64,000 bases of DNA from a virus (IMGVR_UViG_3300023184_000035:32001-96000), one strand, 5' to 3'; numbered from the stretch's first letter, positions 1,635 through 45,741 are shown. Notes: generated from the sequence alone by a model not told the origin. A program made the numbers and translations.

Positions 1635-1952
1635 ATGTCTGTTGAAATTGAAACCTCTGCGCAGAGTACGTTTGAATCCCTTGACTCTCTTAAATTAACG
1701 CCCTTGGTCATGCACCGTATTCAAGTGGAACTGCGTGACATTGCCACATGGTATGCAGTTATTCGAGAACTCAATCAGGTGTATGGGGCCAACAACTGGC
1801 GGGGCCAAAGTCATGTTCGACGACGCCTGGAAGGCTTGATCTGGGACGACAGCAAGTCTCTCTGGGTTTGGTTTGACGTGCCTGATGTGTCCATTACATC
1901 TTGGTTGGCCGTTAAACTAGCCGTCCAAGTGCGTATACCACCCAATAAATAA
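1635..1952 (+). CDS. hypothetical protein
   Basis: 105-aa ORF with AAGGA SD. Confidence 0.7.
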   Translation: MSVEIETSAQSTFESLDSLKLTPLVMHRIQVELRDIATWYAVIRELNQVYGANNWRGQSHVRRRLEGLIWDDSKSLWVWFDVPDVSITSWLAVKLAVQVRIPPNK

Positions 1953-1956
1953 ATCT

Positions 1957-3474
1957 ATGTTCCTCAGTTATTTCACATTGTTAACCGCGCTCTCTTTGAG
2001 CATGGTAGCGGCCTGGTACAGTATCTTGGGCCTTACTGCTATTTTTGCGTCAGCAGTTGTGCCCATTATCATCATGGGATCAATACTGGAAGTGGCCAAG
2101 GTCACTGTCACAGTATGGTTGCACGAATACTGGCCACGATGCCGACTGCTGATGAAAATATACCTGGTGCCGGCTGTGGGTATGCTAATGGTGATAACAT
2201 CAATGGGCATCTTTGGTTTCCTATCAAAGGCACACAGTGACCAAAATTTAATCAGCGGTGATGTACTCAGCAAGATTGCAATATATGATGAAAAGATCAA
2301 GACCCAAAAGGAAAATATTGAAGCAAACCGTAAAGCACTTAAACAGATGGATGAGGGAGTGGACTCGGTATTGGGCCGCTCAGCAGATGAAAAAGGTGCC
2401 GACAAGGCTGTGGCTTTGCGAAGAGCCCAGCAGAAAGAGCGTGTTAGACTTCAAGCTGAAATACTACAGTCGCAGAAGTCCATTGCGGAACTTACGGATG
2501 CCCGTGCGCCTGTTGCCGCCGAGGTACGTAAGGTCGAAGCAGAAGTTGGGCCAATTAAGTATATCGCGGCGTTCATCTACGGGGACAACCCGGACGCCAA
2601 TGTACTAGAACGTGCTGTGCGTTGGGTCATCATCATCTTGGTTGTGGTGTTTGATCCCTTGGCCATCATGATGGTGCTGGCTGCCACAGAGAGCATGAAG
2701 TGGGAACGTGAACGCCGAGCCGAACAACCTGCTTACGAGGCCGATGATGGGCCATTGACCGATGAACAAGTTACACAACTGCGTGAGACAGCGCAAGCAG
2801 AATTGCCCACAGGTGAAACTGTGGCCATCAGCAAGTTGTTTGATGATCCAGGTGAACATCCTGCAGACACATTTGATCATGAATTACCACAAGACCCGCA
2901 CCCGCCAGGGTGGATGTATGACGATTTGGCATCACATCCCATACTTGATGAACATGCGGTAGAAGAAATTGTTGCTGAATTTGATCACGCTCGCGCCGCC
3001 GTGGCATTCGATCAGGCGTACTTGAACGCCGTGGCACAAGACATTGAACCGGAAGATACAGACGATGTTGGGATCAAAGCCGCAATCAAGCAGTGGAAAA
3101 CTGAAAATCCTGATGGCACCATAAAAGAAGAACGTGCCAAATTGGCTCGTGGTCAGATTCAACAACTACCGTGGACACAACTGGTGGCGGACAATGACCT
3201 GGGAAGAGAGCCCACATCTGGGTTTGGCATTAGTTTTCCTAATAAGCCCATCAAAGGTGACACATACATGCGTGTGGATCAAATGCCCAATGTGCTGTAC
3301 AAGTTCAACGGACACCATTGGATTATTGTGGACAAGAATTTAACTGATAACTACACATACGACGATGCATATATTGAGCATTTGATCGCCAAGCTCACAA
3401 GTGGAGAATATGATCCAGACATGCTGAGTGACGCAGAAGCTGATGCCATTGCTCGTCGTGTAAAACCAATTTAA
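1957..3474 (+). CDS. membrane protein with coiled coil and acidic C-terminal region
   Basis: Three N-terminal hydrophobic helices, coiled-coil segment, another TM segment; preceded by TAAATA. Confidence 0.8.
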   Translation: MFLSYFTLLTALSLSMVAAWYSILGLTAIFASAVVPIIIMGSILEVAKVTVTVWLHEYWPRCRLLMKIYLVPAVGMLMVITSMGIFGFLSKAHSDQNLISGDVLSKIAIYDEKIKTQKENIEANRKALKQMDEGVDSVLGRSADEKGADKAVALRRAQQKERVRLQAEILQSQKSIAELTDARAPVAAEVRKVEAEVGPIKYIAAFIYGDNPDANVLERAVRWVIIILVVVFDPLAIMMVLAATESMKWERERRAEQPAYEADDGPLTDEQVTQLRETAQAELPTGETVAISKLFDDPGEHPADTFDHELPQDPHPPGWMYDDLASHPILDEHAVEEIVAEFDHARAAVAFDQAYLNAVAQDIEPEDTDDVGIKAAIKQWKTENPDGTIKEERAKLARGQIQQLPWTQLVADNDLGREPTSGFGISFPNKPIKGDTYMRVDQMPNVLYKFNGHHWIIVDKNLTDNYTYDDAYIEHLIAKLTSGEYDPDMLSDAEADAIARRVKPI

Positions 3475-7158: not shown

Positions 7159-7470
7159 ATGTCACAGAGCGATACCCGCACAAGAATCAAACCATCAGAA
7201 GCTGTGAAAGAGCCGCCTATGTTTAAAGTTATCTACTTGAATGATAATCAAACCACAATGGATTTTGTTGTAGACAGCCTGATTGAGTACTTTGATTACA
7301 CTGCTGAAACTGCTGAACAAATCACTGTAGATATTCATCAAGCAGGACAGGCCACTGTGGCGGTGTTACCTTATGAAATCGCCGAACAAAAAGGCATTGA
7401 AGTCACGCTGAGTGCAAGATCACAAAGCTATCCACTGCAAATCAAACTGGAACCTGAAACTGTAAATTAA
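7159..7470 (+). CDS. clpS: ClpS adaptor protein
   Basis: PPMFKVIYLNDNQTTMDFVV, IH..G, EIAEQK, YPL. Confidence 0.93.
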   Translation: MSQSDTRTRIKPSEAVKEPPMFKVIYLNDNQTTMDFVVDSLIEYFDYTAETAEQITVDIHQAGQATVAVLPYEIAEQKGIEVTLSARSQSYPLQIKLEPETVN

Positions 7471-8255
7471 TCGTCTACAACAATGCGTAGCGGATGGTAC
7501 ACGTACTGACGCCACTCAGTATCACCCCGGCCCCTGCAGTTGTTGATAAAACGCACACCTTGACGTGCTTGGTCCACACTTCCGTGATAATGTCCAAAGC
7601 ACCAGGTGTGTATTTTCTTTTGTGTGTCTGCACTCAATGCTCGCATCATGAATCCATTGCCCATGGTGTTGAATCGCAGTGTGTCAGCAAGCCCAATGTC
7701 GTGTGCAATCAAACTTGAATTGGGTACTGTATGTGTCACACACACAATCTTTCGAACATCATTATGAGTTTGCAATCGTTTGATACTTGTGACCATGTAA
7801 GTGGCATCTGTTGTGGCCAGGCGCCCAGTGGTCTTGGCCACTTGCGCACTGACTTGGCATTGATTCTGGAACCACAGTGATGTTTGCTCTGCATCTATTG
7901 ACGGGTCAAGGTTGTAAGTCCACCAACCATTGGTGCCTACTATTGCAACCCCATCTACTACCACAACATTATCTTGCAAAAACACAACGTTGGGTATGCG
8001 CTTTATTCGATGTGCAAGATCAGCATAACTGGCATTCAAGTCATCATAGAAGTACCGGTGCTCATCATTGCCATCTACGTAAAACACTGCTTGATAACAA
8101 CTGCCAAGATGCCGCAACATGTCAATCACAGTGTCGCGATCTCGTGCAAGATCTCCTGCTACAACACAATATGGACTGGTGGCACGGCCAGACCAATCAA
8201 AATCAGGCCAAGTTTCTGAGTGAATATCAGAAATTAAATCAAATGCAAAACTCAT
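7467..8255 (-). CDS. calcineurin-like metallophosphoesterase
   Basis: SDIH, AGD, GNDE, THTVP, FGHYH motifs. Confidence 0.85.
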   Translation of the reverse strand: MSFAFDLISDIHSETWPDFDWSGRATSPYCVVAGDLARDRDTVIDMLRHLGSCYQAVFYVDGNDEHRYFYDDLNASYADLAHRIKRIPNVVFLQDNVVVVDGVAIVGTNGWWTYNLDPSIDAEQTSLWFQNQCQVSAQVAKTTGRLATTDATYMVTSIKRLQTHNDVRKIVCVTHTVPNSSLIAHDIGLADTLRFNTMGNGFMMRALSADTQKKIHTWCFGHYHGSVDQARQGVRFINNCRGRGDTEWRQYVYHPLRIVVDD

Positions 8256-8279
8256 GATACATATTTAAAAGGAAACTGT

Positions 8280-9237: not shown

Positions 9238-9763
9238 AATGGATCCTTAAAATATTATTTATTGCGTTGGGTTAGAGAGACAGCTTCTTTGTACTTCATT
9301 TAACATCATATAACGTTCACGCTGTCCGTGATAAACGTTATAAATTACCTCGGCAATGTCCCGAGTGATCTGCATGAATTCTGGATTACAATGATGCGGG
9401 AATGTTTGTACGAATGTTTTCTTTGTGTGGTCCCAGTTATTATCTCGCATGATGAATGCGTAATGTGTGAGTTCGTGACCCAGGCCCCAATCTATCATCT
9501 CATAACCATAATGTTTCAGTGTTTCGGGAGAGATGATGATTTGCATATCATAGTCAGAATCATCTGGTATGGGAAATTGAAACATCATTCTTGCTCCGGC
9601 TGGCAGCGTTTCAACAGTAATCGGAGGCATGGGTAAATCTACAGGGGCGCCCACACGCTGTTTGATAAATTTCCACTCTAGTTCAATCACTGGCCAATCT
9701 AAATCCGATATTCCCGGTTGGACGTTGGCTATAGAGCTAGTTAGGCAGAATAGGAACGCCATT
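9187..9763. repeat. 37-bp direct repeat (9187-9223 and 9727-9763) encoding shared signal peptide
   Basis: GGCTATAGAGCTA(A/G)TTAGGCAGAATAGGAACGCCATT, one mismatch. Confidence 0.9.
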
Positions 9764-9777
9764 GCTATGTATTTCAT
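9259..9777 (-). CDS. secreted putative zinc metallopeptidase
   Basis: Signal peptide, HExxH (GHELTH). Confidence 0.6.
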   Translation of the reverse strand: MKYIAMAFLFCLTSSIANVQPGISDLDWPVIELEWKFIKQRVGAPVDLPMPPITVETLPAGARMMFQFPIPDDSDYDMQIIISPETLKHYGYEMIDWGLGHELTHYAFIMRDNNWDHTKKTFVQTFPHHCNPEFMQITRDIAEVIYNVYHGQRERYMMLNEVQRSCLSNPTQ

Positions 9778-9802: not shown

Positions 9803-10801
9803 TTACACAACAGGCACTAAATTATCCCTAAAAATTTCCCAAGCCCTGTCCCAGTTCCACCGCTGACTGCCATCAAATACCCGATGTCTGGGCAGGAACA
9901 AACAGTCAGTAACTGCTTGTTTTAACTGAGCATTGATACAGCCTGTTATACCTTCATCTATTACATCTAATGGACCTGTAGCAGGATACGCAGCTACCGG
10001 TGTGCCACAGGCCATGGCTTCGATCATCACAATGCCAAATGTCTCCCACTGGCTGGGAAACACAAACACATCTGCCAAATTGTAATAATATGCTAGATCA
10101 GCGCCAGTTTTGAATCCCACAAACTCCACGTCAGGATATCGAGACTCTAACTCTGCACGATATGGTCCATCCCCTACCATGATCTTGCGTGAGTTGGGGT
10201 AACTCATGCCGCAGAAATCATCCAGGTTTTTTTCTTTGCTGACTCTGCTGACACACACCAGCGTGGTCTTGGCATTGGGCAAGCGTTCTCTGGGATAGAA
10301 CACAGTGCGATCAACACCGCGTGTCCAGGAAATAATTTCTCCATCAAATCCATGTGCTTTTAATTCTCGAACCATGGTGTCAGTCGTGGTCAGCACCTTG
10401 CCTGAGTGTTTGTGGAACCAACGCACTAGAGGCCAAGTAACTGCTTCAGGGATGCCAAACAGTTTTCTAAGTCCTTCTGGAAACTTAGTATGATAAGCAG
10501 TATTGTACCTATAATGACGTTTGTCAAGATATTGTCTAACACGCAGACCAATAGGACCCTCGGTGGCGATGTGGATATGATCCGGACGGATCTCCTCAAG
10601 TATCGGGCCCAGGTTCCGCGGAAAGGCAATCTTGACTTCGTTGTAGCCAGGGCAATCAACATAGCGGAACCTCCGGGGATCAAGGTATACAACACGATAG
10701 TGATCCCGAATCGCACACGCCTCAATATTTTTGTAAGTGGTAACCACGCCATTGATCTGATCCGGTAAGTTATCTGTGACTATTAAGATTGTTTTTTGCA
10801 T
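9803..10801 (-). CDS. GT4 glycosyltransferase, Agt-like (glycosyl-diacylglycerol synthase type)
   Basis: ILIVTD...QINGVVTT, HIATEGPIG, YHTKFPE, RVSKEKN, ETFGIVMIEAMACG. Confidence 0.88.
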   Translation of the reverse strand: MQKTILIVTDNLPDQINGVVTTYKNIEACAIRDHYRVVYLDPRRFRYVDCPGYNEVKIAFPRNLGPILEEIRPDHIHIATEGPIGLRVRQYLDKRHYRYNTAYHTKFPEGLRKLFGIPEAVTWPLVRWFHKHSGKVLTTTDTMVRELKAHGFDGEIISWTRGVDRTVFYPRERLPNAKTTLVCVSRVSKEKNLDDFCGMSYPNSRKIMVGDGPYRAELESRYPDVEFVGFKTGADLAYYYNLADVFVFPSQWETFGIVMIEAMACGTPVAAYPATGPLDVIDEGITGCINAQLKQAVTDCLFLPRHRVFDGSQRWNWDRAWEIFRDNLVPVV

Positions 10802-10956
10802 TCGCCCGTTACCTTGAATGTTTTAAACTTTAACTCATATCGCATGGTCGCCAGCACCTGTTCGCAACTGAGTTGATTTGGGAAAACTAATTCTATTCTT
10901 CCGGGTTGATCTTGCGGATTCGTTGTGTGTACTGCTATCAATATCATCAACCACAT
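10783..10956 (-). CDS. small secreted/membrane protein (57 aa, MWLMILIAVH...)
   Basis: ORF read by hand; overlaps plcP-like tail and agt-like start. Confidence 0.5.
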   Translation of the reverse strand: MWLMILIAVHTTNPQDQPGRIELVFPNQLSCEQVLATMRYELKFKTFKVTGECKKQS

Positions 10957-11707
10957 TGTCAGTCTCCTGTGTCCACGTTACAATTTCCCATGTGCCATCA
11001 TGCCGTTCTACCAAGGCAGTGCATGATTCTACCCAGTCGCCGTCGTTCATGTATACAACGCCATCTATATCTTTGATCTCTGCGTGATGTATGTGTCCGC
11101 AGATCACACCATCAAACCCACGCTTCTTGCAGTACTGTGCAAGATTGTGTTCAAAATGAAATATAAAGTCTACTGCTTTTTTGACCCGATGTTTAAGGAA
11201 CAGGCTAAGGCTAAAGTACCCAAAACCAAAATGATGACGAATCCAATTAATCCGAGTATTGAGTCCAAGAATGAAATCATATGCTTTGTCTCCCAACATT
11301 GCCAACCACGGCGCCAGTCTAGTGATGCCGTCAAACAGATCACCGTGTACCACAAGATAGTGCTTGCCGTCGGCACCTATGTGTTCAGTTTGATTTACCA
11401 ATTCAATTATGCCAAACCCAATGCCATATTGCATGAAGGGCCTTAGAAACTCGTCATGATTACCAGCCACATATACCACACGAGTACCACGTTTGCTATG
11501 ACCCAGCACACGGCGAATGACGTTGGTGTGACTTTGTTTCCAGCGCCATTTGTTTTGTTTGATTTTCCAAGCATCAATAATATCTCCCACAAGATATAGT
11601 GTTTCGCAAGTGTTGTGTTTGAGGAAGTTGTTGAGTTTGTCAGCCTGGCTGTCTTTAGTGCCAAGATGTACGTCGCTGATGAAAATGCTGCGATAAGTTT
11701 TTTGCAT
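10835..11707 (-). CDS. PlcP/LpxH2-family metallophosphoesterase (putative phospholipase C)
   Basis: FISDVHLG, GDIID, GNHDE, HGDLFD, ICGHIH, YMNDGDWVESCTALVE; adjacent to Agt-like GT4. Confidence 0.88.
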   Translation of the reverse strand: MQKTYRSIFISDVHLGTKDSQADKLNNFLKHNTCETLYLVGDIIDAWKIKQNKWRWKQSHTNVIRRVLGHSKRGTRVVYVAGNHDEFLRPFMQYGIGFGIIELVNQTEHIGADGKHYLVVHGDLFDGITRLAPWLAMLGDKAYDFILGLNTRINWIRHHFGFGYFSLSLFLKHRVKKAVDFIFHFEHNLAQYCKKRGFDGVICGHIHHAEIKDIDGVVYMNDGDWVESCTALVERHDGTWEIVTWTQETDNVVDDIDSSTHNESARSTRKNRISFPKSTQLRTGAGDHAI

Positions 11708-11728
11708 ATATTATTTAAATCTAGATGT

Positions 11729-11746
11729 GTTACAATAGCATTACAA
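11729..11746 (-). promoter_or_regulatory. Pho box upstream of plcP-like gene
   Basis: Minus strand TTGTAAT-GCTA-TTGTAAC, then 10 nt, then TTAAATAAT. Confidence 0.7.
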
Positions 11747-11791
11747 ACTGGTATCACACAAATGTGTAATATATTGGCACATAAATACCCC

Positions 11792-12433
11792 GTGAAACCC
11801 ACCATAGCCCTTTTCATATACGATCCCAAATGCTCGGTGCAGAGCGGGAATGGGGTTATTCGGGCCTTGAGCCCACATTACAACATCAAGCTATTTTCAA
11901 AAAATCGTGTGGAAGATGTGTTCTTCAATGATGTAGACATGATTGTTGTGCCCGGCGGGTTTGGTGATGCAGATAGTTATGCCAGCCTGTTCAAAAACAA
12001 CGAAAAAAAAGTCAAAGATTTTGTTGCTGATGGGGGCAGATATCTGGGCATTTGCATGGGTGCATACTGGGCAGGCAGTCACTATCTTGATGTGTTGGAT
12101 AGTGTGGATGCAGTACAGTATTTGACACGCCCGGGCACAGACACACGCAGACCACATGCCAAGTCCATTAATGTGATGTGGCGGGGTCAGGCAGATCAGA
12201 TGTTTTGGTATGATGGGTGTGCGTTAGTTGGGGATTCAACAAAGTTTGAAACTGTGAGCACATACGCCAATGGTGATGCTATGGCCATCATACAGAACAG
12301 AATTGGCCTAATTGGCTGCCATCCCGAAGCAGACCGATTCTGGTACGACAGTTACTCATGGATGCGCCGACACTGGCGTGGCGGACATCACAACGTGCTG
12401 TTACAGTTTGCTGATGAGTTGATGACGAAGTAA
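11792..12433 (+). CDS. BPL_N / class I glutamine amidotransferase-like protein
   Basis: VVPGG, GGRYLGICMGAY, GCHPE; GTG start just after ATAAATA. Confidence 0.8.
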   Translation: MKPTIALFIYDPKCSVQSGNGVIRALSPHYNIKLFSKNRVEDVFFNDVDMIVVPGGFGDADSYASLFKNNEKKVKDFVADGGRYLGICMGAYWAGSHYLDVLDSVDAVQYLTRPGTDTRRPHAKSINVMWRGQADQMFWYDGCALVGDSTKFETVSTYANGDAMAIIQNRIGLIGCHPEADRFWYDSYSWMRRHWRGGHHNVLLQFADELMTK

Positions 12434-21185: not shown

Positions 21186-22337
21186 TCAGAAGCGGAACTG
21201 CATGCCAATCGCCACAGCGTGTTGGGCATACTTGCTGTCTGAGTATGTTGATCCGTCTGCATTGGGAATCCAACGATCATAGATTGTGAATGGTGAAACT
21301 GCACCACTAGCACGATCAGCTCTTACATAATCAATAAAGATTTCTGTACGCTTATCAAATGCGTAGGTAGCACCAACAGCAGCCATTTTCACATTGTCAA
21401 TACCGGCAGTGATTTTATCTGTCACACTGTAGTAACCACCGTTCAGGCTCACACGGTCCGAAACTTTGTACTTGGCACCAACAAACCATGTGTCTGCGTC
21501 TGTCTTACCATTTGCATAGCTTGAGCTAGAGTAGTATGTGGTCTGTGACGTTGGGTTACGTGTTTCTGCATAGCCTGCGTTTAGTGTCAATGCAGGAGTA
21601 ACAGCATATTTGGCAGCAACCAAGTCAATGTTTTCGCTGACTACTGTATTGCTCAAACGTGCTTCTTCGTGTGTGTATGCTAGATCCAATGGACCATCAG
21701 TGTAACGAACACCTGCGTTGTAGCTGGACTTGTAGCTGGTGTCACCCAATTGGTTGCCGGCTGCGTATGCATAATCAAACTTCAAACCACCAAAACTGGG
21801 TGATGTGTAACGAATCATGTTGTCAAATCTGCTAACACCTGAACCTGAGTAGAAACCAGCATAACGAGCTACTGATTTAGCACCACCAAAGTTCCAGTTA
21901 CCACGTGAGTCAAACTCATCAAGTACGTTGTACAAGAAGTTCTTGCCACGACCCAATTGTAATTGGCCGTATTCTTTGTTGCTTAGTGCCACGTTGGCTT
22001 CACGGTCAAACAATGTTGTGCCTGCTGAACCTGTTGCGCCAGAGTCTTTACCGGCTGCACCAGTACGTGCGCTGAAGTTACCTTCCATTTGGAAGCTGGC
22101 CTTGAAGCCGTCACCCAGGTCCTGTGAACCTTTGAAGCCAAAGCGATTGCTGTTGTGTAGTTGTTCACCTACACCTGAAAAGTCTTGATTGCTAGAACCA
22201 AAACCACTTCCACTGACTGCGCCAACACCAATAACACCATACAATTCTGTATTGCGAGCTGCGTCCTGTGCCTGTGCTGCGCTGGTAGCGATACCAACGG
22301 TCAACAATGCGGCTAGAACAATTTTTGTAAATTTCAT
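21186..22337 (-). CDS. Gram-negative trimeric porin (Neisseria/Burkholderia type)
   Basis: Signal peptide, LYG, SNRFGFKGSQDLG, LFDREANV, RFDN.IRYTSP, C-terminal F. Confidence 0.92.
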   Translation of the reverse strand: MKFTKIVLAALLTVGIATSAAQAQDAARNTELYGVIGVGAVSGSGFGSSNQDFSGVGEQLHNSNRFGFKGSQDLGDGFKASFQMEGNFSARTGAAGKDSGATGSAGTTLFDREANVALSNKEYGQLQLGRGKNFLYNVLDEFDSRGNWNFGGAKSVARYAGFYSGSGVSRFDNMIRYTSPSFGGLKFDYAYAAGNQLGDTSYKSSYNAGVRYTDGPLDLAYTHEEARLSNTVVSENIDLVAAKYAVTPALTLNAGYAETRNPTSQTTYYSSSSYANGKTDADTWFVGAKYKVSDRVSLNGGYYSVTDKITAGIDNVKMAAVGATYAFDKRTEIFIDYVRADRASGAVSPFTIYDRWIPNADGSTYSDSKYAQHAVAIGMQFRF

Positions 22338-22404: not shown

Positions 22405-23421
22405 TTATTTCTTGATCTGTGTCCAAACGTCACTGCGGATGCGATCCGTTAGTGATTTTGGCAATGGCACGTAATCAAGATCAGCAGCCATTTTACCACC
22501 ATTCACAAATGCCCAGTCAAAGAACTTGATGGTTTCTTGGCTGTTCTTTGCATTTTTTGGTTCACGGTACATCAACACAAATGTTGCGCCTGTGATGGGC
22601 CATGATTGTGCGCCCTTTTGATTTACCAAACTGATACCCATGCCTGGAACTGAGAACCAGTCTGCACCCTTGGCAGCTGACGCAAACGTTTCATCATCAG
22701 GTTCCACCCACTTGCCATCGCGATTTTGCAATTTAACATGGGTCATTTTGTTCTTTTTAGCATAAGCATATTCCACGTATCCAATTGAATTCTTCACACG
22801 ACTCACATTGGCTGCAACACCCTCGTTGCCCTTGCCACCCACACTACTGGTAGCAGGCCATTTGACAGCGGCACCCCGGCCAACTTCTTCTTTCCAAACG
22901 GCGCTGACTTCAGTCAAGTAGTCTGTGAAAATAAATGTTGTTCCTGACCCATCTGCACGATGCACCACTGTGATGTTGGCATCGGGCAATTTTACTTTGG
23001 GATTTAACTCTTGAATACGTCGGTCATTCCACATAACAATGTGACCAACAAATATCTTGGCCAAGACTTCACCAGTTAACTGTAACTCGCCAGGTTTAAC
23101 GCCTTCTACATTGATCACAGGAACAACACCGCCCAGCACTGTGGGGAATTGTACAAGTCCTGCGGCTGTTAAATCATCACCTTTAAGGGGTGCATCTGTT
23201 GCGCCAAAGTCCACTGTGGCTGCTTTGATTTGCTTGATACCACCTGAACTGCCAATGCTTTGATAGTTAAGTTCAATGCCAGCTTTTTCCTTGTATGCTT
23301 CTGACCACTTGCTATAAATGGGAAAGGGGAAGGTTGCGCCTGCCCCTGTGATTGTTTCTGAATTTGCCTGCGGGCTCATCAAATACAATGACGCCGCAAT
23401 TACTGCTAAGATTTTTTTCAT
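22405..23421 (-). CDS. pstS: phosphate ABC transporter periplasmic binding protein PstS
   Basis: GAGATFP, YQSIGSSGG, VDFGATD, HRADGSGTT, GKGNEGV, IGYVE. Confidence 0.97.
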   Translation of the reverse strand: MKKILAVIAASLYLMSPQANSETITGAGATFPFPIYSKWSEAYKEKAGIELNYQSIGSSGGIKQIKAATVDFGATDAPLKGDDLTAAGLVQFPTVLGGVVPVINVEGVKPGELQLTGEVLAKIFVGHIVMWNDRRIQELNPKVKLPDANITVVHRADGSGTTFIFTDYLTEVSAVWKEEVGRGAAVKWPATSSVGGKGNEGVAANVSRVKNSIGYVEYAYAKKNKMTHVKLQNRDGKWVEPDDETFASAAKGADWFSVPGMGISLVNQKGAQSWPITGATFVLMYREPKNAKNSQETIKFFDWAFVNGGKMAADLDYVPLPKSLTDRIRSDVWTQIKK

Positions 23422-23473: not shown

Positions 23474-23491
23474 GTTACAGTAGTGTTACAG
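23474..23491 (-). promoter_or_regulatory. Pho box upstream of pstS
   Basis: Minus strand CTGTAAC-ACTA-CTGTAAC, then 10 nt, then TTAAATAAT. Confidence 0.85.
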
Positions 23492-24903: not shown

Positions 24904-26145
24904 ATGAAAAAAATTGGTTTTATTGGGATTGGCAAGTTGGGTCTCGATTGTGCAGAAGTCATGGCTGAGAAGCATGAAGTACGGGGTTACGATATTTACC
25001 CACGCTCTAGCGACTCAGTAAAAGTCTGTGGCATTGACGAGCTAGTGAACGAAAGCGAATGGATCTTTATTGCTGTGCCCACACCACATGCACCAGGCTA
25101 CGATGGATCAGTGCCCAGCAGCCACATGGAGCCTCGAGACTTTGGGCATGACGCTGTGATTGATGCTATTAAGAATGTGAACCGGTATGCAACCACACCC
25201 AAAAAGGTTGTGTTGATCAGTACTGTATTACCAGGTACCACACGCAAACACTTTTATCCATTACTGGATTCAAAACATCAGTTCCTGTACAACCCTTACT
25301 TGATTGCCATGGGCAGTGTGAAGTGGGATATGATTAATCCTGAAATGGTCATGATTGGAACAGAAGATGGCAACCCCAATGCCTTGGCAGGTGAACTAAT
25401 AGACCTGTACAAGACCATCATGGCGAACGATCCACGTTACGAAATTGGCACCTGGGACGAATGCGAAGCCATCAAGATCTTCTACAACACATTCATCTCT
25501 GCCAAAGTTGGCTTGGTCAACATGATTCAAGACTTTGCACTACGCATTGGCAACATCAATGTTGATGTAGTTACAGATGCTCTAGCACGTAGCACCATGC
25601 GTATCATGGGACCCAAGTACATGACAGCAGGCATGGGCGATGCAGGTGCATGTCATCCCAGAGACAACATTGCCCTGCGTTGGTTGGCCAAGGAATACAA
25701 CATTGGATATGACTTGTTTGACACTGTGATGCATGCACGTGAAGTGCAGGCCAAGAACTTGGCCATGTACTTGTTGGACCTGAGTGTGATGAACAACGAT
25801 ATGCCCATTGTGATCCATGGCAAAGCATACAAGCCTGATGTTGAGTATTGCATTGGATCTTACTCAACACTTGTGGGACACTACATTGAACAAGAAGGCC
25901 GTCAAGTTGTATACGTTGATCCCTTGGCAGATGATCCCACTAATGTTGTGGCCACTGTGGACACTCCGGCAATCTTTTTGTGGGCACACAACCGCAAAAT
26001 CACATACGAATACACAGGTGATCAATTGGACACACTGCCCTACTGCAACATCATGTCAGGCAGTATCATTGTTGATCCATGGCGCAAACTAACATCAACT
26101 CCCGAGGTCGAAGTTGTCCACTACGGTAACACCCGAGTTCATTAA
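24904..26145 (+). CDS. UDP-glucose/GDP-mannose dehydrogenase family protein
   Basis: GIGKLG, FIAVPTP, ISTVLPGTT, YNP, E.IKIFYN, GACHPRD, AYKP. Confidence 0.92.
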   Translation: MKKIGFIGIGKLGLDCAEVMAEKHEVRGYDIYPRSSDSVKVCGIDELVNESEWIFIAVPTPHAPGYDGSVPSSHMEPRDFGHDAVIDAIKNVNRYATTPKKVVLISTVLPGTTRKHFYPLLDSKHQFLYNPYLIAMGSVKWDMINPEMVMIGTEDGNPNALAGELIDLYKTIMANDPRYEIGTWDECEAIKIFYNTFISAKVGLVNMIQDFALRIGNINVDVVTDALARSTMRIMGPKYMTAGMGDAGACHPRDNIALRWLAKEYNIGYDLFDTVMHAREVQAKNLAMYLLDLSVMNNDMPIVIHGKAYKPDVEYCIGSYSTLVGHYIEQEGRQVVYVDPLADDPTNVVATVDTPAIFLWAHNRKITYEYTGDQLDTLPYCNIMSGSIIVDPWRKLTSTPEVEVVHYGNTRVH

Positions 26146-44743: not shown

Positions 44744-44942
44744 TTGTGGTTCTCAACAGGCCTTGGCCTACAAGCATCAGTTGGATATTGACGGACTCAT
44801 AGTCAACCAAGACTATACCTGGCGATATCAAAAACCTGTGTACGATGAGTTTGCCTGGACTGATTCGGAAGTCAGCAATGTCACATTCACATTCCGAAAT
44901 CCCATGTTGGCCACATTCTATCAGTTAAAGTGGTGTCGGTAA
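44715..44942 (+). CDS. small protein, F.LxW family
   Basis: C-terminal FTFRNPMLATFYQLKW. Confidence 0.65.
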   Translation: METVDYVRLNCGSQQALAYKHQLDIDGLIVNQDYTWRYQKPVYDEFAWTDSEVSNVTFTFRNPMLATFYQLKWCR

Positions 44943-44949
44943 ATATCCC

Positions 44950-45741
44950 ATGCGATATTTACTATTGACCCTGCTATTCACAGCAACCACAGCACTAGCA
45001 CGTGAGCCCAGTGTTTACGTATACAACGAAACCTCAGATCAAATTGAATACCAACGCAACTCAACAGAGTATCGGCCCATTGCCAGCATCACCAAGTTGA
45101 TGACAGCCATGGTGGCCCTGGACCACAGCAAAGACCTGTTTCGTCAGCTGCCACTCAACACCACTGTCAAAAGCAACTTGCCACGTGGCACATACACACG
45201 CCAAGAACTGTTTACGGCCATGCTGGTGCGAAGTGACAATGCAGCCGCAGAAACCTTGGCTGGGGACTATCCCGGTGGTAGGAAAGAGTTCGTTTGGCGC
45301 ATGAATCAACAGGCCAAGGAGTGGGGCATCAATGCTGTATTCCGTGACCCCACTGGCTTGGACGCACACAACATGGCCACTGCTGGCGATGTGGGCACCA
45401 TGGCTGGGTATGCCGCGGGCTACTGGGTCATACGTGATGCTAGTGTTAAAAAGACTGTGGCCTTTGAACGCAAATTCAAGAAGCGACTACGCACAATACA
45501 ACTCAACAACACCAATAGACCCATACTAATGGAGTTTGATGAAATCATTGCGTCAAAAACTGGTTTCACCAATCCAGCAGGATACTGTGTTGCCCTGGTG
45601 GTAGAACATCAAAAACAACGGCGAGTAATTGTGGTTCTGGGTGAGCGCAACAAATCACGCAGAATAGACACTGTGCAGGACATCATGTACAATCATGTGC
45701 TGGATCAAAATTTGCAGGATCCAAGTTATATCAATAATTAA
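44950..45741 (+). CDS. D-alanyl-D-alanine endo/carboxypeptidase (peptidase S11, PBP7-like)
   Basis: Signal peptide, SITK (SxxK), SDN, KTG. Confidence 0.92.
   Translation: MRYLLLTLLFTATTALAREPSVYVYNETSDQIEYQRNSTEYRPIASITKLMTAMVALDHSKDLFRQLPLNTTVKSNLPRGTYTRQELFTAMLVRSDNAAAETLAGDYPGGRKEFVWRMNQQAKEWGINAVFRDPTGLDAHNMATAGDVGTMAGYAAGYWVIRDASVKKTVAFERKFKKRLRTIQLNNTNRPILMEFDEIIASKTGFTNPAGYCVALVVEHQKQRRVIVVLGERNKSRRIDTVQDIMYNHVLDQNLQDPSYINN

Follow-up and report, generated by a model that had tools for sequence, protein, structure and literature searches.

What would a bacteriophage gain from carrying two genes of the kind that phosphorus-starved bacteria use to exchange their own membrane phospholipids for glycolipids? 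The question is raised by positions 9,803 to 11,746 of a 64,000-nucleotide (nt) stretch of viral DNA, hereafter the window, which comprises bases 32001-96000 of a 148,133-bp IMG/VR virus record (IMGVR_UViG_3300023184_000035) with a G+C content of 46%. On its minus strand, a gene for a PlcP-family phospholipase-C-type metallophosphoesterase of 290 amino acids (aa; 10835-11707; Pfam Metallophos, E 9e-11), called the esterase in what follows, is followed by a gene for a 332-aa Agt-related GT4 glycosyltransferase (9803-10801; Glycos_transf_1, E 8e-23; Glyco_transf_4, E 4e-12). A sequence-only reading of the window had described this pair as a Pho-box-controlled module for membrane phospholipid replacement, and our analysis recovered the pair, as well as the arrangement box-N10-TTAAATAAT that the esterase gene and a phage pstS gene have in common, at the same positions. 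The explanation that we favour, with fair confidence, is that the two genes form a lipid-swap operon which is boosted by PhoB together with pstS, draws phosphorus from the host membrane and patches that membrane with glycolipid.

The first matter to settle is the nature of the esterase. All the calcineurin-like motifs (DxH, GD, GNH(D/E), H and GHxH) are present, and the residues D12/H14, G41/D42, G82-N83-H84-D85, H121 and G204-H205-x-H207 among which are all the metal-binding and catalytic ones, are invariant in 37 phage and bacterial sequences. The AlphaFold2 model (predicted local distance difference test, pLDDT, 77) has a metallophosphoesterase core, into which a helical segment (residues 124-195) is inserted, and ends in a disordered tail (249-290). 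The nearest solved fold is that of LpxH, to which all of the 25 best structure matches belong (template-modelling score, TM, 0.47-0.62); the alignment of the family profile with LpxH extends through the cap, and annotation pipelines give the protein that name. What the two proteins have in common is a calcineurin-like core with an inserted helical, lipid-binding cap, an architecture that fits a lipid substrate. These likenesses, together with the observation that phage glycosyltransferases often modify surface polysaccharides, would speak for an esterase that is an LpxH-type hydrolase, or a pyrophosphatase of sugar nucleotides or lipid-linked substrates, and that acts with its partner to alter lipid A, lipopolysaccharide (LPS) or capsule, for example at the phage receptor. 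We regard this explanation as very improbable. The esterase is only about 18-22% identical to LpxH and reaches 45.9 bits on the equivalog model NF003743 (cut-off 134) and 36.6 bits on TIGR01854 (cut-off 190), models on which the genuine LpxH proteins of four genomes reach 250-345 bits. Of the four gammaproteobacterial genomes searched, three (G001, G002 and G003) hold a true LpxH plus a paralogue of the esterase. In the tree, a branch with a support value of 100 splits the four genuine LpxH from two PlcP references, all phage copies and 34 sequences from bacterial records, 3 of which are probably misbinned phage contigs. The scores, the co-occurrence and this branch rule out identity with LpxH, and the Pho-type site and neighbourhood common to pstS are a further argument against a role in surface polysaccharide. 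The viral esterases form one clade (support 98) nested among bacterial PlcPs, including the characterised ones. On sequence grounds the esterase is thus assigned to the PlcP type rather than to LpxH, and the choice that the earlier reading had made between the two families is borne out.

The two references deserve a comment. The esterase shares 55.5% identity over 247 aa with the Pseudomonas aeruginosa protein that occupies the PA3219 position, and 49.4% over 245 aa with the only homologue in the Sinorhizobium meliloti record, figures in which the equivalence to PA3219 and SMc00171 rests on synteny and not on locus tags. Both sequences were taken from PLSDB records (L140, CP090106.1; L141, CP075839.1) that are apparently mislabelled: the S. 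meliloti "pSymB", at 3.7 Mb, is chromosome-sized, and the P. aeruginosa "plasmid" carries a seemingly chromosomal cyaB-to-azoR3 region. In the latter, cyaB is accompanied by a gene for a family-1 (GT1) glycosyltransferase and by the esterase gene, with azoR3 three genes further, an order that we take to be the PA3217-PA3223 synteny of the PAO1 numbering, whose middle genes would be PA3218 (Agt1) and PA3219 (PlcP). The S. meliloti homologue lies about 2.7 kb from a LuxR-type gene and probably occupies the SMc00171 position. PA3219 itself is only 46-47% identical to the PlcPs of S. meliloti and Phaeobacter (Jones et al., PMC8528852).

The second enzyme had been described as an Agt-type glycosyltransferase, a label that holds in part. 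The clade of the SAR11 enzyme GTcp is marked by a catalytic His104-Asp256 dyad, in which Asp stands for the Glu customary in GT4 enzymes, by the UDP-sugar motifs GRVAxEKN and FPSxTDTFG and by the residues Thr162, Arg163 and Trp320 of a diacylglycerol (DAG) pocket, and shares less than 25% identity with other GT4 enzymes; the substitution D256E removes more than 90% of GTcp activity (10.1101/2021.03.25.437072). The phage GT4, nearly equal in length (332 against 334 aa), has H104, the sequence SRVSKEKN, which matches the first motif closely, and T160/R161 and W317/W319 aligned with the DAG-pocket residues. Its second motif reads FPSQWETFG, with two of nine positions changed and Glu in place of the catalytic Asp. 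This Asp (PSxTDTFG) is found in all 20 plcP-linked proteobacterial GT4s that were aligned, and is kept in a second phage subclade, whose identity to the window enzyme is about 54%. The single clade of the phage GT4s (support 100) is divided into a branch with Asp and one with Glu and stands beside the plcP-linked bacterial Agts in a tree that has no unrelated GT4 outgroup and joins the phage and bacterial Agt groups in a polytomy. Over 329 aa the window enzyme shares 38% identity with the P. aeruginosa protein that occupies the PA3218 position, and PA3218 is in turn 41% identical to the MED193 Agt (PMC8528852). Most signature residues agree with the earlier label; the catalytic residue does not, and because of it we class the enzyme as Agt-related rather than as a strict member of the Agt/GTcp clade. 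Diacylglycerol is its predicted and likely acceptor, with the reservation that, given Glu at a position where the same exchange is so costly in GTcp, glycosylation of DAG is not assured.

Among phage copies, the ratio of nonsynonymous to synonymous substitution (dN/dS) is 0.09 for the esterase and 0.145 for GT4, a sign of purifying selection on both genes, which are widely distributed. The esterase is encoded by at least 597 IMG/VR contigs. There are thousands of close homologues of the two proteins (75-96% identity), and the contigs that bear them reach 513 kb and look phage-like in gene content. The genomes of the carrier phages measure 160-360 kb, and the related contigs appear to originate from lake metagenomes. 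Directly 3' of the esterase gene, 29 of 65 distinct viral loci have the GT4 gene and 25 of 65 a gene for an unrelated 238-aa GT2/GT21-like enzyme; in 3 of the 65 the GT4 gene lies about 1 kb 3', in 4 the contig ends and in 4 something else follows. Of the 61 viral loci left when those cut by a contig end are set aside, 57 accordingly have a GT4 or GT2 partner. Three near-complete relatives (G006, G008 and G009) have no GT4, and the possibility that they carry the esterase without any glycosyltransferase was ruled out by the GT2 gene directly downstream. That the glycosyltransferase family has been swapped and the pairing kept is good evidence that the product of the esterase is glycosylated.

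The operon is of bacterial origin. Most alphaproteobacterial homologues of the esterase have a GT4 gene directly 3', and the order plcP then agt corresponds to the "type 2" layout of Sebastian et al. (PMC4796936). The nearest bacterial relatives of the phage esterase are found in alphaproteobacteria and SAR324, which means that the donor of the gene need not be the present host. In three contigs assigned to bacteria (L001, L002 and L010, from Haliscomenobacter, Bacteroidia and Competibacteraceae metagenome-assembled genomes) the esterase and GT4 fall inside the viral clade, at 64-80% identity; these are probably phage contigs binned into bacterial genomes.

How is the pair expressed? The 33-nt gap between its genes contains an AAGG ribosome-binding site and, within it, no terminator-like hairpin was seen, so that the two genes look co-transcribed, as the sequence-only reading had held. 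Upstream of the esterase gene stands the direct repeat TTGTAAT-GCTA-TTGTAAC (11729-11746, minus strand), with two 7-nt half-sites and an 11-bp period. It is followed, reading along the sequence, by 10 nt (11728-11719), by TTAAATAAT (11710-11718), a -10-like element with the core TAAATA at 11717-11712, by AT, and by the esterase ATG at 11707; the distance from the box is 11 nt to TAAATA and 10 nt to TTAAAT. The second box, CTGTAAC-ACTA-CTGTAAC (23474-23491, minus strand), lies 5' of pstS, the gene for a periplasmic phosphate-binding protein (22405-23421, minus strand; NF008171, 418 bits against a cut-off of 339), and is likewise followed by N10 and TTAAATAAT (23463-23455), and then by a 33-nt leader that contains AAGGA and ends at the ATG at 23421. 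No -35-like hexamer is found at the esterase and pstS promoters. PhoB-dependent promoters of the Escherichia coli Pho regulon are expected to lack this hexamer, the box standing in its stead about 10 bp ahead of the -10 element.

The pattern YTGTAAY-N4-YTGTAAY has exactly two matches in the window, and these are the only two in the whole record. In shuffled versions of the window the mean is 0.46 matches, and 7 of 100 shuffles reach two. Comparative conservation is a stronger argument for the box than these shuffle statistics. With half-sites of the form TGT[ACG]A[CT], the layout TGTNAY-N5-TGTNAY-N11-TAAATA precedes the esterase start by no more than 100 nt in 27 of 64 distinct upstream regions from viral contigs, and in these 27 loci the spacing between box and TAAATA is invariably 11 nt although the upstream sequence and genes differ. 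The rest of the loci surveyed, 777 kb in all, contains the layout 13 times: in 8 of the 13 directly 5' of pstS, as also in the relatives G011 and G006, and once before a divergent BPL_N-like gene. The proteobacterial box consensus is CTGTCAT-N4-CTGTCAT (PMC8528852), and of its 14 half-site bases the esterase box matches 10 and the pstS box 12. TGTCAY repeats are also present upstream of the bacterial plcP homologues that were fetched. The direct repeat is thus supported, as far as sequence comparison reaches, as a Pho-box-type site common to pstS and kept in many related phages. Conservation of the gene pair and of its box in many relatives, which the earlier reading had left to a survey of related contigs, is what that survey brought out, together with the layout common to esterase and pstS.

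The element to which the box is joined is of a more general kind. The record is, judging from its gene families, a fragment of a large T4-like (Kyanoviridae-like) myovirus, of about 42% completeness (CheckV). One virion structural protein matches phrog_5838 with 820 bits and shares 37-44% identity with proteins of T4-like cyanomyophages; the record also has members of head-decoration, tail-fibre and ribonucleotide-reductase families, and no end repeats were found in the 148,133 bp. TAAATA resembles the T4 late promoter TATAAATA. Of its 72 copies, 28 lie in intergenic DNA, which makes up 6% of the genome, and it precedes about 40 genes of the record, structural genes included. It is placed either 17-27 nt 5' of the start codon and separated from it by a ribosome-binding site, or 4-8 nt 5' of it, as at the esterase gene (4 nt). 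About 12 genes start in this second way without a ribosome-binding site, for example at 11782-11794 (+), 1946-1959 (+), 8255-8267 (-) and 44940-44952 (+), which suggests that many late-type transcripts are leaderless in this T4-like phage. Because TAAATA stands only 4 nt before its ATG, the esterase mRNA would have no leader or almost none. Among the relatives with the esterase, the three near-complete ones each possess a gene for a gp55-type late sigma factor (E 4e-53, 4e-51 and 9e-8). As TAAATA is a general, T4-late-like core, expression need not be limited to phosphorus-starved hosts, and late transcription of the operon may take place at any phosphate status, PhoB increasing it or bringing it forward. 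The proposal of the sequence-only reading that the module is expressed only when the host is phosphorus-limited is therefore not supported as it stands: the -10-like element is that of late genes in general, and late expression free of PhoB is quite possible.

Several points weigh against a PhoB-controlled lipid swap. PhoB is known to act through sigma-70, whereas the core is late-type. The -10-like element is a generic phage promoter core, and the sigma factor that would read it is encoded by relatives. The half-sites of the window are TGTAAY and not the canonical TGTCAY, about 45% of the related phages have no box, and predicted Pho boxes in phages often fail (PMC10976474). On the enzymatic side, the window GT4 has Glu where GTcp needs Asp; and PlcP frees phospho-head groups, not phosphate, and no phage phosphatase for these head groups was identified. 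The points about the promoter would suit an alternative in which PhoB does not act at the repeat, the operon is just one more of the TAAATA-driven late genes, and the repeat is the site of another regulator, of phage or host, or debris inherited from a promoter of the bacterial donor. We hold this to be unlikely. The exact 11-nt spacing recurs in 27 upstream regions that otherwise differ, and the box recurs before pstS, a core gene of the Pho regulon. Across relatives the half-sites take the forms TGTAAC, TGTAAT, TGTCAC and TGTCAT, a variation that a degenerate PhoB site should show, and no regulator of the OmpR/PhoB type is encoded in the fragment. In favour of PhoB control in general, binding of host PhoB to promoters of a T4-like cyanophage has been demonstrated by gel shift (PMC10976474).

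The lipid-swap operon, as we picture it, would work as follows. In a phosphate-starved host, phosphorylated PhoB would bind the TGTAAY-N5-TGTAAY box at the place of a -35 element, 11 nt 5' of the core, and would turn on or boost the operon together with the phage unit of pstS and porin, the operon mRNA beginning at the ATG or within a few bases of it; the same late-gene core might also yield transcripts late in infection regardless of PhoB. PlcP would remove the phospho-head groups of host phospholipids and leave diacylglycerol. Host phosphatases could then release the phosphate, which would enter phage nucleotide synthesis, and the glycosyltransferase would turn the diacylglycerol into a phosphorus-free glycolipid that keeps the membrane intact until lysis. 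Withdrawal of membrane phosphorus with a glycolipid patch is the most economical reading of the protein families, gene order and promoter layout described above; from these we infer the substrates of the two enzymes, the binding of PhoB, what becomes of the phosphate and how the phage benefits.

That benefit might be a different one. Lipid remodelling could be real and serve to block superinfection or predation, to stabilise the cell or to set the timing of lysis, with PhoB as no more than a cue to host physiology. Lipid renovation has been tied to phage susceptibility and to grazing in three papers (PMC9804370, PMC9938194 and PMC9457565), and a benefit other than salvage would agree both with the release of head groups for which no phage phosphatase was seen and with the retention of the glycosyltransferase pairing where the box is absent. 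A control site common to pstS, and the frequent location of the esterase gene beside pstS, argue instead for phosphorus economy, as does the high phosphorus demand of genomes of 160-360 kb. We give this alternative a low probability and the salvage of membrane phosphorus the preference.

The closest known counterpart of the phage operon is the bacterial PlcP-Agt pathway, which has the same two families, plcP followed by a GT4 gene and a Pho-box-type site upstream, and is represented by S. meliloti SMc00171, Phaeobacter MED193_17359, SAR11 HTCC7211 PB7211_983/960, P. aeruginosa PA3219/PA3218 and Burkholderia cenocepacia BCAL2364/2365 (PMC4796936, PMC8528852, PMC13691135). The phage version differs in being virus-encoded, in the joining of the box to a late-type core and in its near-leaderless start. 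It also has a phage-specific GT4 clade, of which the window branch carries Glu for the catalytic Asp, a GT2 enzyme instead in about 40% of phage loci, and no dagK gene. A second counterpart is found in T4-like cyanophages (pstS and phoA of P-SSM2; S-PM2d genes bound by host PhoB), in which host-type Pho boxes likewise precede phosphorus-stress genes and pstS is carried (PMC10976474). In contrast to these, the cargo here is a lipid-remodelling pair and not a gene for uptake, phosphatase or nucleotide metabolism, and the box belongs to the proteobacterial TGTCAT type, whereas the cyanobacterial type is PyTTAAPyPy(T/A).

The earlier claim that such a pair had not been described in a phage needs to be divided. 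No paper on a virus-encoded PlcP or on a phage lipid-remodelling pair was found, in a literature coverage that is incomplete and leaves absence unproven. The papers on pmoC-phages and amoC-phages make no mention of lipids or pstS; the AmoC family had no match in the fragment, a result of little weight since no control genome matched that family either. A 4-kb blastn comparison with GenBank phage records returned no match. The esterase gene itself, in contrast, is already on record, for at the protein level homologues were found in two cultured phages. Pelagibacter phage Mosig EXVC030M (MT647606.1) encodes Mosig_00120, which is 47% identical to the esterase, annotated as LpxH and back to back with pstS, and Synechococcus phage S-SRM01 encodes QPX48289, 36% identical and again annotated as LpxH. 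In neither phage is a glycosyltransferase annotated beside the homologue, and the Mosig genome paper does not mention Mosig_00120. A virome survey of Lake Baikal lists viral "lpxH" as an auxiliary metabolic gene under LPS synthesis (PMC9611531).

Such "lpxH" entries of phages, filed under LPS synthesis in virome surveys, are probably plcP. The established phosphorus genes of phages act on uptake (pstS), on phosphatases (phoA) and on nucleotides (mazG, phoH). If the lipid swap takes place, the membrane would be an internal phosphorus reserve tapped during infection, which would be a new route, and glycolipid to phospholipid ratios measured in phosphorus-poor waters may then partly reflect infection. 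The promoter would lend itself to study as an example of how a host response regulator is joined to a phage core, and Pelagibacter phage Mosig with strain HTCC1062 provides a cultured pair in which such ideas can be tested. A broader generalisation is offered here only tentatively, as one that may well prove too wide: an abundant clade of lake T4-like phages and at least one cultured SAR11 myophage would possess a modular phosphorus-stress unit that makes host phospholipid a phosphorus store for phage DNA, with PlcP as the constant part, GT4 or GT2 as its partner, a Pho box or a two-hairpin leader in front, and host PhoB acting on a late-sigma core that gives leaderless transcripts. On that view virus-driven lipid remodelling would be widespread in phosphorus-poor waters, where it is so far unmeasured.

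The two-hairpin leader takes the place of the box in 15 related loci. It consists of two adjacent 5-bp hairpins with 9-nt loops that contain CGATAA and CCGTAA, and compensatory changes affect 6 of its 10 base pairs. The element was located at L111:2958-3000, with equivalents at the same position in L067, L072, L077, L084, L088, L099 and L105, and in the further loci L106, L109, L114, L115, L120 and L122. An Rfam search with it gave no meaningful match, and it may be an undescribed cis-regulatory RNA that controls the esterase gene. A different arrangement is seen in Mosig, where the intergenic region between pstS and the plcP-like gene (L138:3841-3992) has TTAACA half-sites repeated at a spacing of about 11 bp, as against TGTAAC in the window phage, and ATAAATA 5 nt before the esterase ATG. 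These repeats are a possible SAR11-type counterpart of the box.

The pstS gene, which is predicted to belong to the same regulon as the esterase operon, is of the enterobacterial type (53% identity to enterobacterial PstS against 37% to cyanophage PstS). A Gram-negative porin gene lies directly 3' of it (21186-22337, minus strand; Porin_4, E 5e-37). In the plasmid collection the porin matches only Burkholderiales porins, at about 30% identity, which weakly indicates Burkholderiales-type hosts; the box, for its part, is of proteobacterial type. Near the pstS-porin unit, a UDP-glucose-dehydrogenase-like gene (24904-26145, plus strand; phrog_9148, 295 bits; TIGR03026, 130 bits, below the cut-off of 189.8) could supply UDP-glucuronate for an acidic glycolipid; no box was found 5' of it, and its tie to the operon is a conjecture.

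Directly 3' of the GT4 gene, an open reading frame of 172 aa (9259-9777, minus strand) has an AGGAG site of its own and a hydrophobic N-terminus resembling a signal peptide, and could share a transcript with the pair; it belongs to no Pfam family and had no tblastn match in any related locus fetched. Further along the same strand, a second metallophosphoesterase gene (7467-8255; phrog_1649, 84 bits; TIGR03729 "putative phosphoesterase", 38 bits) has a leaderless-type TAAATA start with no Pho-type box seen 5' of it, and its product might process the phospho-head groups freed by PlcP. Divergent from the esterase gene lies a BPL_N / class-I glutamine-amidotransferase-like gene (11792-12433, plus strand) that starts with GTG and encodes 213 aa; it has its own TAAATA at 11782-11787, 4 nt 5' of the start, plus a degenerate box. 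About 35 of 80 related viral loci have a gene of this kind within 3 kb of the esterase gene; its orientation varies, it sometimes lies behind a degenerate box and TAAATA of its own, and it may represent a third member of the module.

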